This document shows, one piece after another, positions 8,797 to 10,636 of a stretch of DNA of 12,128 nucleotides. Source of the DNA: a virus (lineage: Duplodnaviria > Heunggongvirae > Uroviricota > Caudoviricetes); the IMG/VR virus record IMGVR_UViG_2778261502_000010, positions 1 to 12,128 of that record; one strand, given 5' to 3'. The notes beneath the pieces were generated by a model. That model had not been told where the DNA came from. It searched no databases and saw nothing but the letters and a program-made list of their open reading frames with translations. Position 1 is the stretch's first letter, and each line of letters starts with the position of its first letter. The translations under genes were made by a program, and so were the position numbers.

Positions 8797-8827
8797 TTTT
8801 TTTGCAAATCACAAAGTCCATTTAATG

Positions 8828-8852
8828 AGCCTCGCGATGCGGGGCTTTTTTT
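8828..8852 (+). terminator. Rho-independent terminator after the lysis cassette
   Basis: AGCCTCGC-GAT-GCGGGGCT (8-bp stem with one G-U pair) followed by a run of 7 T. Confidence 0.7.
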
Positions 8853-9001
8853 ACATCTGAATTTCACAGCGCATCTCACGCGCATATTACATCACCCGAG
8901 CCTTTCAGAAAGTTGAGCCTGAGAACTGCCGTATATGGTGGCGACCATCTCGGGGCGGCTTTTCTGTGAGACAGGCTCACTTTCTAAAAGGTAAAGACGC
9001 T

Positions 9002-9490
9002 ATGAACCAATTAGAAGAAAAGCTTCAAAGAATGATTTCCTTATACAAGGAAGATAACTGCCAAAAAGTTCCTGAAAACATCGCAGAGTTAATGGAATTG
9101 GCAAGTGAATTTTCTGGCATGCTTAAGTCGTCAGGTGTTCGGTCAGCGTTCTTTGTTGAAATGCTGATGCACGGCGGACTTATGGCAACAATGAGACGTG
9201 TAATGGAAGACCAGAGAAAAGAACCTCCTCAGGTATACGTTTTGTCATCGAAGAAAACTGGGCTAACCAAAATTGGGTATTCATCCAACATTCCACAACG
9301 CATCAAATCGCTTGGCAACTCTGGACCAGACTGCTTGAAGCTTGAGTGCCTGATCCCTGGTGGAAGAGAAACTGAAAACATGCTTCATCGCAAATTTGCC
9401 GCAAAGAGAAAGCACGGTGAATGGTTCGCCCTGTCCAAGGATGACATTGAGGGATTGAAATCTGTAGCGATTACTTCTGATGGCTATTAA
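9002..9490 (+). CDS. Hypothetical protein with a C-terminal T5orf172 / GIY-YIG-like domain (162 aa from the ATG at 9002; alternative GTG at 8966)
   Basis: The C-terminal half PQVYVLSSKKTGLTKIGYSSNIPQRIKSLGNS...LKLECLIPGGRETENMLHRKFAAKRKHGEWFALSKDDIEGLKSV fits the T5orf172 pattern (VYVL...KIG...R...L......E..LH..F...R..GEWF). The N-terminal ~80 aa are unassigned. AAGG lies about 10 nt upstream of the ATG at 9002. Confidence 0.6.
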   Translation: MNQLEEKLQRMISLYKEDNCQKVPENIAELMELASEFSGMLKSSGVRSAFFVEMLMHGGLMATMRRVMEDQRKEPPQVYVLSSKKTGLTKIGYSSNIPQRIKSLGNSGPDCLKLECLIPGGRETENMLHRKFAAKRKHGEWFALSKDDIEGLKSVAITSDGY

Positions 9491-10168
9491 TGCTTGTTTA
9501 GAGCAATTTTCATAACAACTCTTCATTACAAAGCCCATCTACTGGTGGGCTTGATAATGAAACCGTGATTTACATCCCCACAATCCGGGTATGTAAAAGA
9601 TAGTTCAGGCGAGAACGGATTTAACTAAATCTGTGCGCCACCAGTTAACGGCAGTACCACGAAACAACCCAAGCCAGTAAGTGGGGAAATAACACCGGCA
9701 GCCACTGAAAGATGAACCTCCTGCCTTATGGCAAAAAAGATTCTTTGTGGTGGCGGACTGATGGAAAGACATCCTAATTTCAGCCAAACATTGAAGGAGT
9801 TGTTATGTCAGCAGAAGGTTTCAATAACCCATCAAAATTCCGGGATGAGTGGGATAGCAGCGTAAAGAGTAAGTGATGCCATCACAAAAGCCATTCCCTA
9901 CAGAGTGGCTTTGATAATGGCTTATACCCTACACGGGATAACTTAACTGATATCCCTTTTAAAGGATAAAGGTATTCAAGCCTGACACATCATGCGCTGT
10001 ATCGTCGCCGTATTCCCGTATTAACAGAGACCGTAGCCCGACGGGGAACTCCTTCTGCGCGAGTGTGCGGGAATAATCAAAAACGATGCACACCGGGGTT
10101 ACCGGGTACACATATTTCATCATGCCAGCGAGTCCGGTTCTGGCACGGAAGAAACCGGACGTTATGAT

Positions 10169-10579
10169 TTAGTGCGGAAATATTTGTGTAGTGTTCTGAA
10201 TGTTCTCAGTAAAGAGTAATGAATTATCAAAGGTATAGTAATACCTTTTGTTTTCGTGGATATTTGTAATCCATCTGAAAACCCCTGCTGTAGCAAGATT
10301 TTTCCTGTATTCGTAAAATGATAACTCTCCTGATTTGAATCCTTTTAATGTGGCTTCTATAAGGCATTTATTTTTTGAAAATCTTACATTTACAACCTTA
10401 CCCTGTCCTTTTATTAAAACCGTATTATCGTTTTCAAGAACAAGATGAATATTCTCTGTGGCTAAATAGTAAATGTAATGTGAGACATTGTGACGTTTTA
10501 GTTCAGAATAAAACCAGTGATAGTTTAAATTATTTCGCACTTTATCGAATATTTGTTTAAAAATGGCAACCTGAGCCAT
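10169..10579 (-). CDS. ybcV: YbcV-like protein (DUF1398 family), 136 aa from the MAQVAIF start
   Basis: [58 protein letters not shown]...[38 protein letters not shown] resembles DLP12 YbcV from memory. GAAGG lies upstream of the second ATG; the first ATG is at 10594. Confidence 0.7.
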
Positions 10580-10636
10580 TGTAGTACCTTCCATGTGATA
10601 TGAGGGTACCTAGTCTGCACGATTATCTAAATTGCT

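Follow-up and report, generated by a model that had tools for sequence, protein, structure and literature searches.

What does a stretch of about 0.7 kb hold when it lies in the slot of bor, with the bor gene itself missing? This question is raised by positions 9491 to 10168 of a 12,128-nt viral DNA (the whole stretch analyzed is referred to here as the window), which belong to an E. coli lambdoid prophage of the DLP12 type. A preliminary description had pointed out a 23-codon open reading frame (ORF), a 54-codon minus-strand frame, and three hairpins in this interval, and had proposed that gene remnants, a small RNA, or small proteins might reside there. Each of these frames and hairpins was indeed present where it had been placed, and the interval is the site occupied by bor in lambda and K-12 DLP12, as had been claimed.

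Mosaic make-up of the bor slot

As summarized in Table 1, seven conserved segments with recombination joints make up a mosaic, and homology between phages ends precisely at the hairpins designated H. In this DLP12-like prophage, a P22/HK97-type rightward accessory-gene array stands in place of bor. Judged from these comparisons, the interval is a junction, where the end of a rightward late-operon array with interchangeable P22/HK97-type cassettes (left) meets the leftward ybcV module (right), the latter of which runs on into bor in lambda and K-12 DLP12. Alignment to bor-carrying prophages, proposed earlier as a check, located the boundaries: homology to DLP12, lambda, and 933W stops at 9993, and, relative to K-12 DLP12, ~630 bp (the 3′ half of Rz, borD, and the borD promoter) has been swapped for ~1.4 kb comprising a terminator, the T5orf172 gene, H1, S2, S3, S4, H2, and S6. 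The gene upstream of S0 (8966-9490) matches Pfam T5orf172/MUG113, and S0 travels together with this T5orf172/GIY-YIG-like gene, while S2 is deleted in Chlobot and different in Emek. As for the gene remnants suspected before, no pseudogene fragments were found; what stood of the proposal is that S3 represents the 3′ flank of rha with a relic stop codon and that S7 represents the ybcV-bor spacer remaining after bor loss.

Table 1. Coordinates of the segments, hairpins, and reading frames in the interval
Feature	Positions	Strand	Details
S0, 3′ trailer of the T5orf172/GIY-YIG-like gene	9491-9521	+	Common only to phages with that gene (HK106, Chlobot)
H1, hairpin	9522-9561	+	Lower stem, 2x2 internal loop CA/GA, upper stem AAGCCCA/TGGGCTT
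S2, mosaic filler	9562-9638	not assigned	Common to Sf6 and HK106; from local BLAST map, alignment, and architecture counts
S3, near-invariant rha 3′ flank	9639-9778	+	From P22 and POCJ13 annotation and sequence
45-codon ORF, probable mis-call	9728-9865	+	Overlaps the micro-gene in another frame
S4, micro-gene cassette	9779-9877	+	SD 9794-9799; ORF 9805-9876; TGA 9874-9876
H2, hairpin, paralogue of H1	9878-9921	+	19-nt arms; directly 3′ of the micro-gene stop
S6, conserved tail of the rightward array	9922-9970	+	Stem 9935-9956; TTTT 9957-9960; GGATAA direct repeat 9936-9941/9963-9968
54-codon ORF, lineage-specific chance frame	9959-10123	−	Within S7
S7, ybcV-proximal part of the ybcV-bor spacer	9971-10168	−	Aligned with lambda/HK630, DLP12, 933W, 4A7, PPyecE, and POCJ13

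S7 has a conserved non-coding core at about 9993-10100, and the alignment with lambda, DLP12, and 933W revealed that the bor ORF which lies downstream of this spacer is absent from the window. The bor promoter (TGGACA-N15-TACAAT in HK630, itself a prediction) is degenerate here, with CGGTCT...TACGGC at the aligned positions, and the promoter scan gave no minus-strand promoter-like site. On this alignment, S7 is the leftover of the ybcV-bor spacer after bor loss. It includes the inverted repeat TCCGGTT-N13-AACCGGA (10133-10159), located 9 nt from the stop (10169) of the DUF1398 (ybcV-like) gene; the fold of this hairpin alone was marginal (z = −2.6, 3/200 shuffles), it is conserved in relatives, and 4A7 holds a compensatory version, TCCTGT...ACAGGA.

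The 23-codon ORF and other reading frames

The 23-codon ORF, MSAEGFNNPSKFRDEWDSSVKSK, begins 5 nt downstream of the Shine-Dalgarno (SD) motif AAGGAG, and its stop codon ends one nucleotide before H2. Homologues comprised 24 peptide variants of 23-30 aa, which occur in prophages of Escherichia, Enterobacter, Atlantibacter, Trabulsiella, and Proteus and in the Salmonella phage Emek; in every case the gene lies on the late strand, between Rz and the terminase genes. These peptides are hydrophilic and share the core G-[FS]-x-N-P-x-[KQ]-F-R-x-E-[WL]-D, with seven residues that are invariant across the family and encoded by differing synonymous codons. Homologues from other genera, at 43-61% protein identity, have the same fixed length between unrelated flanks; the diverged full-length ones keep an aligned ATG and SD, and a GGAG-type motif lies upstream of most.

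The nucleotide data pointed in the same direction. Codon 1 is ATG in 90 of 95 distinct versions, and codon 24 is a stop in 93 of them. The pN/pS ratio was 0.39 in the frame of the ORF versus 0.91 and 1.22 in the other sense frames, and 18 of 29 segregating mutations were synonymous, where ~20% would be expected. Since the homologues were retrieved by a translated search together with a peptide pattern, part of this coding test carries an ascertainment bias, and the synonymous excess is given both with (p = 3e-4) and without the codons of the search pattern (p = 0.009). The ORF is less variable than its own flanks, S4 has merely three nucleotide versions among 82 loci, one locus (L202) carries an in-frame recombinant of two paralogous copies, and the predicted fold leaves the SD and the AUG free. 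With length-fixed homologues in several enterobacterial genera and a coding substitution pattern, the 23-codon ORF is very probably a protein-coding gene, hereafter the micro-gene, as the small-protein option had it, and, by the same comparisons, it is the only frame in the interval with the signature of a gene.

The micro-peptide was absent from a collection of 15 billion proteins and from all other protein collections searched, and RefSeq holds no annotation at the micro-gene in 126 E. coli genomes. Membership in DUF2740 (PF10872) was tried and rejected, with scores of 12.9-13.6 bits (E of ~0.06-0.09) against a gathering threshold of 27 bits. In this profile search, five of nine members matched and the four others gave no match; the five align to the same 14 positions (19-32 of 43) via a GFDNPSKFR.EWD core, but the peptides span only a third of the profile, the matches are non-independent, and the comparison was by profile only. 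We found no mention of DUF2740 in the literature. P22 orf25 was also discarded as a homologue, being unrelated and merely overlapping H2′, the empty-site variant of H2.

A consensus scan of the plus strand found no sigma-70-like promoter upstream of 9805. Because no promoter-like site precedes the micro-gene, its expression rests on assumed late read-through: in lytic growth, Q-antiterminated transcription from pR′ would reach the micro-gene, ribosomes would initiate at its strong SD, and the functional product would be the micro-peptide itself.

The small-protein option did not survive for the 54-codon ORF, which lacks an SD, as noted before. Other lineages lack its start codon and first 8 codons, and the frame is interrupted by a stop codon in lambda, DLP12, and 933W and disrupted by indels in the POCJ13/Stx types. 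Its pN/pS was 0.63 versus 0.62-1.03 in the other five frames, amino-acid identity was below nucleotide identity, and searches of Pfam, PHROG, and NCBIfam gave no match. Assignment to DUF1398 was rejected, the shared database cluster being an artefact of partial proteins. By these comparisons, the 54-codon ORF is a chance reading frame and not a conserved gene. A further frame, the 45-codon ORF, was not on the list of the preliminary description; it is present in databases and annotated in some records as a hypothetical protein. An A-run indel frameshifts it in Emek, the Proteus and Enterobacter homologues have stop codons in this frame, and its pN/pS is 0.91; from these data, it is probably a mis-call.

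The H hairpins and the cassette slot

The stem AAGCCCA-N8-TGGGCTT (9531-9552) proved to be the core of a longer hairpin, H1, whose 16-nt arms are 88% complementary (−22.2 kcal/mol, z = −7.6, with none of 200 shuffles folding equally well; covariance-model match of 54.7 bits). Its paralogue H2, overlooked before, folds at −21.1 kcal/mol (z = −4.7) and matches the covariance model at 60.3 bits. This model gave 169 co-oriented matches in 100 loci; Sf6 and HK106 have two matches each per whole genome, both of them in this region (at 37831 and 38495 in Sf6), and H2 alone was found in 1444 of 5426 complete E. coli genomes.

Covariation, which had been suggested as a check on the hairpins, was borne out for the H family, as both partners vary in 10 of 18 pairs while the CA/GA loop is invariant, and 92% of the cells in the H alignment are paired versus 30-50% in slid controls. 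Compensatory differences separate H2 from H2′ and are also present in diverged copies from Proteus, Enterobacter, and Trabulsiella. Because the hairpin variants fall into a handful of lineages, the independent compensatory events are few. The plus strand, which is the sense of the late mRNA, folds better in 16 of 17 variants, and ~16% of the paired cells are G·U on this strand (A·C mismatches on the other). Such a strand asymmetry is what an RNA of the late-mRNA sense would show, unlike a duplex palindrome, while an inverted repeat would also be preserved by a role of H at the DNA level.

The stop codon of the upstream ORF lies at the base of H for at least 12 unrelated ORF families, and in most lineages the base overlaps the stop codon of the preceding accessory ORF, with the exception of H1 here, which sits 30 nt from the upstream stop codon. 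As intrinsic terminators, H1 and H2 lack a U-tract (the 3′ sequence is GAAACCG for H1 and GCTTATACC for H2), the terminator scan reported neither of them, and in the larger cassettes H is preceded by a separate, true terminator. No Rfam family matched H, nor is the hairpin described in the genome paper of phage L. In late mRNA, H could help to process or stabilize the 3′ end of the upstream cistron, possibly as an RNase III-type site or as an exonuclease barrier, and its conserved 45 nt may provide the homology for swapping ORF+H units between phages.

S3 was found in 163 phage records at 90-99% identity and with almost no internal variation across 117 flank contexts. It contains the relic rha stop TAA (9646-9648), an A-run indel polymorphism (9732-9737), and a minus-strand terminator-like stem (9717-9738), a site that is also annotated in phage L. 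Three assignments of S3 were rejected: it is not the inside of rha, since the overlap is the last 10 nt with the stop codon and the rest is 3′ flank; a structured RNA is not supported, since its fold is not significant (z of about −1) despite the strong conservation, the variation being too small for a covariation test; and it is not an ORF, since the A-run indel breaks all spanning frames. An S3-like stretch in Enterobacter and Trabulsiella was set aside, the similarity being too limited for use.

The right edge of S3 (...GACATC, 9773) is a fixed insertion point of at least five different ORF cassettes, each ending in H, and at least four unrelated cassettes share an identical 5′ junction after this motif. 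ORFs of 23, 56/57, 71, 80, and 118-126 aa occur at the junction, which is empty in about 68 loci; thus, as with morons, a gene is variably present here among otherwise collinear relatives. The micro-gene cassette occupies the slot of Sf6 gene 66, one locus carries cassettes in tandem, and some hairpins are recombinant (L017 and L105). Among the loci examined, annotated neighbors comprise lysis, Rha/KilA-N/T5orf172, and terminase genes. Downstream of H2, the GGGATA-N10-TATCCC hairpin with its TTTT, listed previously, lies in S6 and is conserved in relatives. This 6-bp stem has a 10-nt loop and is followed by four T only, its fold alone is marginal (z = −3.1, with 3 of 200 shuffles folding as well), and it is absent from the terminator-scan output; the P22 and Enterobacter copies keep the stem sequence without the T-run. 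It is at best a weak terminator. In P22-like phages, S6 runs into the SD of orf80.

Likeness to known systems and rival readings

Intercistronic hairpins of phage mRNAs that are processed by RNase III include the T7 R sites and lambda sib. H resembles them in its predicted structure, an irregular helix of ~18-20 bp (18 pairs plus the 2x2 loop) in the sense strand of a long polycistronic phage mRNA and directly 3′ of cistrons. We know of no scorable sequence consensus for RNase III sites, and, to our knowledge, neither the overlap with a stop codon nor the invariant CA/GA loop has been described for them. H also recalls integron attC sites, in that an imperfect inverted repeat lies 3′ of each promoter-less ORF cassette, with one insertion point and sometimes in tandem. 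However, attC is conserved mainly in structure, while H is conserved in sequence and shows a strand asymmetry that fits the mRNA sense, the array lies inside a phage late operon, and there is no integron integrase among the annotated neighbors in the loci examined.

Like lambdoid morons (Juhala et al. 2000, as cited in PMC4104026), the cassettes are extra genes variably present at one position between conserved late-operon modules, and the interval holds the same position as the bor slot of lambda, DLP12, and 933W. Classical morons come with a promoter and a terminator of their own, and lysogens often express them. In contrast, the micro-gene cassette has an SD with no detectable promoter and ends in a conserved non-terminator hairpin rather than in a stem with a U-tract. 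The boundary sequences of Sf6 ('bsq'; AF547987) are similar in being short, conserved between unrelated flanks, and located at gene boundaries where homology switches, but none of the seven annotated features (bsq2-bsq7 listed) covers the Sf6 H copies. Moreover, H covaries and has an invariant internal loop and a strand-asymmetric stability, none of which is needed by simple recombination linkers. The micro-gene itself resembles YnfR of the K-12 Qin prophage, a 21-aa protein discovered by Ribo-seq, in being a late-strand gene of ~20 codons in the equivalent Rz-to-DUF1398 slot, but YnfR (MKAPSGAFLLGVYSMDTHILR) has no sequence similarity to the micro-peptide. As possible relatives, ynfR, ynfN, ynfQ, and gnsB of K-12 Qin were rejected, being unrelated to the micro-gene and without the H hairpin. 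In the K-12 Qin and DLP12 stretches examined and in the right end of lambda (45000-48502), no H hairpin was detected and a translated pattern search found no copy of the micro-gene; because the K-12 stretches hold no copy, K-12 data sets could not detect it.

We favor, with a probability of about 65%, a joint reading in which the interval is a mosaic junction with a coding micro-gene, a covarying H hairpin, the rha flank S3, and a leftover S7 with an accidental 54-codon ORF, and in which the micro-gene and H have the roles proposed above. H might instead act in DNA, either as a linker or single-strand hairpin site for the capture or exchange of ORF+H cassettes, akin to the module linkers of Botstein or, by analogy, to attC, or as a palindromic binding site of a phage DNA-binding protein. 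The ending of every cassette in H, the shared 5′ junction, the tandem locus and recombinant hairpins, the breaks of homology exactly at the hairpins, and neighbors of the Rha, KilA-N, and T5orf172 type of DNA-binding protein would all suit such a role. Against it stand the G·U pairs and the greater stability of the plus strand, the invariant CA/GA mismatch, which breaks palindromic symmetry, and annotated neighbors that, in the loci examined, include no integrase or dedicated recombinase, so that we hold this role to be possible but unlikely. RNA and DNA roles of H are not mutually exclusive. The micro-gene, for its part, could be translated as a cis-acting leader or upstream ORF, with a coupling or nascent-peptide effect and no free micro-protein. 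Such an arrangement is suggested by APC_JM3.2-type copies, whose stop lies 5 nt before the small-terminase ATG, by Atlantibacter and E. adelaidei, in which the next ATG follows one and 4 nt after the stop, respectively, and by Proteus phage Brookers, in which a gp66-like gene begins 17 nt downstream. However, the downstream partner differs in every lineage, only the hairpin and no downstream cistron lies 3′ of the ORF in this window, in Trabulsiella, and in Proteus phage Pm34, and the seven invariant residues imply that the peptide sequence matters; we consider a leader function distinctly improbable.

A regulatory small RNA, expressed for instance from S3 or the rha 3′ UTR and ending at the S6 stem with TTTT, would account for the conservation of S3 far beyond its flanks with no consistent ORF, for the terminator-like S6 of this window, and for the minus-strand terminator-like stem inside S3. 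The whole window, however, gave zero Rfam matches at gathering score and, under permissive settings, only mir-458 (22 bits versus 59) and Proteo-phage-1 (20 versus 42), neither of them close to its threshold; S3 does not fold better than its shuffled versions, promoter-like sites are absent from both strands of S3-S6, and the S6 T-run is not kept in P22 or Enterobacter. ARAGORN likewise found no tRNA or tmRNA. Described prophage small RNAs lie elsewhere, as the AgvB/AsxR anti-sRNAs of EHEC/EPEC occupy a moron site near Q, pR′, and holin (PMC4104026) and the Pas sRNAs are likewise near Q, pR′, and holin (10.64898/2026.05.13.724894), whereas the interval is downstream of Rz; we rejected it as a locus of the AgvB/AsxR or Pas type, outside the Q/pR′-to-lysis site. 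A regulatory small RNA is accordingly very unlikely to be encoded here, and what is left of the earlier small-RNA proposal is not a free-standing molecule but a covarying hairpin motif inside the late transcript. Least credible to us is that nothing in the interval functions, the pieces being recombination debris whose conservation would come only from recent horizontal transfer between lambdoid phages. For most segments, identity between phages is 92-99%, as is typical of recently exchanged mosaic patches, and the few versions of S4 and the accidental 54-codon ORF agree with this, but recent spread cannot explain the diverged, length-fixed micro-ORF homologues between unrelated flanks, the synonymous excess in polymorphism, or the compensatory hairpin changes with diverged copies in three further genera. 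Going beyond the joint reading, ORF+H might constitute an unrecognized cassette system of lambdoid late operons, with H as both an RNA 3′-end signal and a capture site after the rha flank and the 23-aa peptide as a conserved late-phase effector, for example on packaging; packaging is suggested because a paralogue lies 5 nt upstream of the small-terminase gene. We regard this extended proposal as a long shot, although not quite so remote as the small RNA.

If the ordinary reading alone applies, the locus offers well-mapped moron-zone mosaicism and one new small gene. None of the annotation pipelines and protein databases examined had picked up this conserved 23-codon gene, which is carried by temperate phages of enterobacteria, and several records annotate the overlapping wrong frame in its place. 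The micro-gene is a candidate for the catalogue of phage micro-proteins, adjoining the DNA-packaging genes, and the present comparisons also put right some likely mis-annotations, namely P22 orf25, Pm34 gp6, and the hypothetical proteins of 45 and 54 aa. H is a structured motif with good support that Rfam does not list; about one in four complete E. coli genomes has it, with O157:H7, O104:H4, and ST131 strains among the carriers. Its position at stop codons provides a testable handle on why the mosaic joints of lambdoid phages fall exactly at gene boundaries, for which homology-guided exchange at conserved linkers and selection after random recombination are the candidate answers.

Setting and mosaic composition of the interval

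The window is E. coli DNA from a lambdoid prophage resembling DLP12. An 851-bp probe (window 9400-10250) was matched over at least 80% of its length by 65 complete genomes, and all 20 genome matches listed were 100% identical across the full probe. RefSeq annotation of an identical copy gives the order porin, essD, rrrD, Rz, a "GIY-YIG nuclease family" gene, a 0.7-kb unannotated gap, a DUF1398 ybcV-like gene, YlcI/YnfO, nohD, and terminase, and the interval thus separates the last of the rightward accessory genes from the ybcV module, which runs leftward. The preliminary description had placed it in the slot where related prophages carry bor, and alignment to K-12 DLP12 bore this out: homology extends to 8607 and restarts at 9993, with ∼630 bp of DLP12 (the 3′ half of Rz, borD, and the bor promoter region) swapped for ∼1,385 bp in the window. 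As the left breakpoint (8607/8608) falls inside Rz, the Rz of the window is a hybrid, with a 3′ half that differs from the DLP12 allele.

Sequence reading and the ORF list located both short ORFs, the SD, and the three inverted repeats where they had been reported; a long hairpin (H2) and a 45-codon ORF had been overlooked. Megablast against phages yielded no record spanning 80% of the interval, and many records covered differing parts of it. Segment borders were drawn from local BLAST and alignment against Chlobot, Sf6, HK106, PhiR49_1, an Stx2 phage, Emek, and lambda, and more than 25 segment combinations were found across 130 loci. For the most part, the 0.7 kb is joint DNA typical of lambdoid mosaics, comprising the rha flank, a bor-less spacer, and a chance ORF.

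Features of the interval and its flanks (window positions)
Feature	Position	Strand	Remark
"GIY-YIG nuclease family" gene	8966-9490		Pfam T5orf172/MUG113
S0	9491-9521
H1	9522-9561		arms 9522-9537 and 9546-9561
S2	9562-9638
S3	9639-9778
45-codon ORF	9728-9865	+	overlaps the micro-gene in another frame
S4	9779-9877
SD of 23-codon ORF	9794-9799	+	AAGGAG, 5 nt ahead of ATG at 9805
23-codon ORF (micro-gene)	9805-9876	+	within S4
H2	9878-9921		19-nt arms
S6	9922-9970
S7	9971-10168
Hairpin after ybcV stop	10133-10159		within S7
DUF1398 ybcV-like gene	10169-10594	minus	RefSeq annotation of identical copy

The position of the interval differs from that of known prophage small RNAs, since the EHEC anti-sRNAs and EPEC Pas sRNAs adjoin Q/pR′, upstream of the lysis genes (PMC4104026; 10.64898/2026.05.13.724894), whereas the interval lies after Rz. 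In K-12 Qin, the small genes of the equivalent slot (cspI, ynfQ, the 21-aa ynfR, ynfN, and gnsB) are all unrelated to the micro-gene and the slot has no H hairpin, so K-12 ribosome profiling could not have detected the micro-gene.

The spacer segments S7, S6, and S3

Small proteins had been suggested as one possible content of the interval, and for the 54-codon ORF this did not hold. Although 432 phage records matched it in a translated search, most spanned only residues 9 to 44. We aligned S7 in ybcV orientation from the window, Chlobot, PhiR49_1, HK630/lambda, DLP12, 933W, PPyecE, 4A7, and POCJ13. The hairpin after the ybcV stop, marginal when folded alone (z = −2.6), is conserved in this alignment, with one compensatory pair change in phage 4A7 (TCCGGT/ACCGGA to TCCTGT/ACAGGA); it is kept even in phages without ybcV (933W and POCJ13). 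Next to it lies a variable stretch holding the window's ATG and first 8 codons of the ORF, and past this a conserved core of ∼110 nt, which in lambda, DLP12, and 933W is followed by the bor promoter predicted in the HK630 annotation and then by bor. At the promoter hexamers, the window sequence is CGGTCT...TACGGC, and S7 joins S6 instead of bor. The ORF frame has an internal stop in lambda, DLP12, and 933W and a 9-nt deletion in POCJ13, and other copies are frameshifted; its pN/pS was 0.63 versus 0.62 to 1.03 in the other five frames, and amino acid identity fell below nucleotide identity in every comparison. The 54-codon ORF is a lineage-specific accident in conserved noncoding DNA. Kinship with DUF1398 was rejected, the database cluster it shares with DUF1398 proteins being an artefact.

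The GGGATA...TATCCC stem of S6, likewise marginal alone (z = −3.1), and its TTTT are conserved in sequence, but the T-run is absent from P22 and Enterobacter copies, and the terminator scan did not report the stem. S6 continues into the SD of orf80 in P22-like phages; in the window it is the last rightward element ahead of the convergent ybcV module, and is there a weak terminator at best. It contains two direct GGATAA copies (ACGGGATAAC at 9933-9942 and AAGGATAAAG at 9961-9970) and an inverted copy, TATCCC (9951-9956). Retention of the motif in Enterobacter prophages that lack the T-run hints at a putative protein-binding site rather than a terminator.

In the "distant" search, 163 phage records matched 9629-9790 at 90 to 99% identity, and the match is annotated under rha in P22, BTP1, and POCJ13. 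An origin of S3 within rha was ruled out: only the last 10 nt of rha fall in it, the stop codon of rha aligning with TAA at 9646-9648, and S3 is the 3′ flank of rha. S3 was nearly invariant over 117 distinct flank contexts, its left edge being sharp and at the stop codon, and its predicted fold was no better than that of shuffled sequence on either strand (z of about −1). The same contexts revealed an A-run length polymorphism, which frameshifts every ORF across it, including the 45-codon ORF and a 60-codon minus-strand ORF.

A cassette slot and a probable 23-codon micro-gene

For a cassette survey, the sequence between the end of S3 (...GGAAAGACATC) and S6 was taken from all loci. In ∼68 loci the slot is "empty," H2′ (a variant hairpin) directly following S3; this is the form of P22, L, HK106, POCJ13, and Chlobot. 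A filled slot holds one of five unrelated ORFs, of 23, 56/57, 71, 80, or 118 to 126 aa, the last (Sf6 gene 66 type) being Pfam Phage_gp49_66; one locus, L017, has two slot ORFs in tandem. H2 follows every cassette, and the left junction is at the identical nucleotide in all. In E. coli phages, the micro-gene and the gene 66 type are alternative occupants sharing the 5′ junction CTAAT; in Proteus phage Brookers (L135 1501-1972) a gene 66 homologue lies 17 nt 3′ of the micro-gene. The two may derive from one ancestral two-gene cassette.

For the 23-codon ORF, the small-protein suggestion stood: it is very probably a gene, judging from comparison of its homologues. Full-length matches to the peptide (43 to 61% identity, tblastn) in other phages are free-standing ORFs in which the ATG lines up with residue 1, an SD of the GGAG type is present, and the flanks are unrelated; they occur in APC_JM3.2 (MATQGFDNPSKFRDEWDKQAEGK), Proteus phages Brookers and Pm34, and an Enterobacter phage. 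Pattern-plus-tblastn scans recovered 332 to 379 relatives in viral contigs, and one-genome-per-species assemblies gave 14 loci in Escherichia, Enterobacter, Atlantibacter, Trabulsiella, and Proteus, for a total of 24 peptide variants of 23 to 30 aa. Seven residues (G5, N8, P9, F12, R13, E15, and D17) were invariant among nine aligned representatives and are encoded by different synonymous codons (Arg13, for example, by CGG, CGC, CGT, and CGA).

The micro-gene frame had a pN/pS of 0.39 versus 0.91 and 1.22 for the two remaining sense frames, both of which are interrupted by stops in some homologues. Within the Proteus type, 13 of 24 segregating mutations were synonymous (20% expected, P = 3 × 10−4), as were 5 of 5 in the two E. 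coli types, and other frames showed no synonymous excess in within-type polymorphism. As the retrieval pattern spans codons 8 to 15 and is a source of bias in this count, these codons were left out, giving 8 of 16 synonymous versus 21% expected (P = 0.009). Of 95 distinct versions, 93 stop at codon 24; the micro-ORF was less variable than its 30-nt flanks.

The SD and AUG are unsequestered in the predicted fold, and the peptide is hydrophilic and charged. Its downstream neighbor varies (hairpin, terS, gp66-like gene, or other ORFs), which speaks for a free peptide rather than a dedicated leader. Some phages have a second copy, 5 nt ahead of the small-terminase ATG, besides the one in the S3/H2 slot; in some P22-like phages these paralogues, as at L193 2501-2572 and 2920-2991, lie ∼420 nt apart. 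At L202 (IMGVR_UViG_2648501336_000006, 2501-2572) there is an in-frame hybrid of both paralogues, the 5′ half and leader being window type and the 3′ half and downstream small-terminase start APC_JM3.2 type; this implies homologous recombination between the paralogues with loss of everything between them.

Annotation has passed the gene over: none of the 126 complete E. coli genomes with the cassette has a RefSeq annotation there, PHROGs and NCBIfam gave no match to the peptide, and Pfam DUF2740 matched consistently, yet at 13 bits against a cutoff of 27. None of four peptide versions was present in a 15-billion-protein collection, which does contain the overlapping 45-aa frame. That +1 frame is the 45-aa "hypothetical protein" of several Enterobacteriaceae records (NCBI WP_001688536.1 and relatives), probably a misannotation, since an A-run indel disrupts it in Emek and distant homologues have stops in it. 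Pm34 gp6 (L136 1460-1606), Emek orf53, and P22 orf25, which overlaps H2′, look like similar miscalls. Two contigs binned into unrelated MAGs, L222 (JAUVQU010000080.1, "Cellvibrionaceae") and L223 (JARKOR010000234.1, "Candidatus Nanosynbacter"), have a micro-gene and H2 identical to those of the E. coli prophage except for one SD base in L223, and are almost certainly misbinned enterobacterial phage DNA. The 23-codon gene is convincingly conserved and unannotated.

The H hairpin family

The first stem of the preliminary description forms the core of an inverted repeat with 16-nt arms, H1 (−22.2 kcal/mol, z = −7.6), which belongs with H2 (z = −4.7) to one family. H1, H2, and H2′ share a lower stem of 5 to 8 bp (...ATTA/TAAT...), an upper stem of 9 to 10 bp, a loop of 3 to 6 nt, and, between the stems, an invariant 2 × 2 internal loop (5′-CA/5′-GA). 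In a set of 25 distinct E. coli/Salmonella variants, pairing was seen in 93% of cells versus 31 to 51% with slid partners, and 6 pairs changed on both sides. A covariance model made from these variants found 169 co-oriented matches in 100 loci, diverged copies in prophages of Proteus, Enterobacter, and Trabulsiella, and exactly two copies, both post-lysis, in each of the whole genomes of Sf6 and HK106; it found none in lambda's right end or in the stretches of K-12 DLP12 and Qin examined. With the diverged copies included, both sides changed at 10 of 18 pairs (reached by 2 of 500 shuffles), the covariation score was 0.48 versus 0.26, and the CA/GA loop was still invariant; with few lineages represented among the variants, compensatory events that arose independently are limited in number.

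G·U pairs made up ∼16% of paired cells, and the late-mRNA sense strand gave the more stable fold in 16 of 17 variants (mean, −20.6 versus −15.0 kcal/mol; P of about 8 × 10−5), which favors a function on that strand as RNA or at least in single-stranded form. The stop codon of the preceding ORF lay −4 to +6 nt from the first paired base in 36 of 60 distinct upstream contexts, a pattern seen with at least 12 unrelated ORF families; the mode was −2, at which the stop codon overlaps the stem; the distance is one nucleotide from the micro-gene stop to H2 and 30 nt from the T5orf172 stop to H1. H is not the terminator, because the larger cassettes hold a separate true terminator (...GGCGGCCTTTTT) ahead of H2.

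Several further observations concern H and its surroundings. Rha, KilA-N, and T5orf172 genes alternate in the rha slot among phages, and the T5orf172/GIY-YIG-like gene of the window and related loci has at least three alternative C termini (...VAITSDGY, ...ISIPGLPK, and ...TQPELLIN), the latter two stopping exactly at an H hairpin. Directly 3′ of the Rz stop (window 8797-8850), ATCACAAAG (8808-8816) resembles the 5′ arm of H and may be a relic half-site; a strong intrinsic terminator follows (8827-8847 and a T-run). In one viral contig, a weaker match to the model (31.6 bits; L025 5003-5047) directly follows an 89-codon ORF ∼3 kb upstream of the regular copy, and H-like elements may occasionally lie outside the post-lysis region.

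H had no Rfam match, is covered by none of the Sf6 "bsq" features, and is not mentioned in the phage L genome paper; we found no prior description. H, of which the interval has two copies, is a covarying hairpin associated with the stop codons at which exchangeable accessory genes end. An RNA-level role is the favored one; a DNA-level role as a recombination linker is less likely, and the two may coexist.
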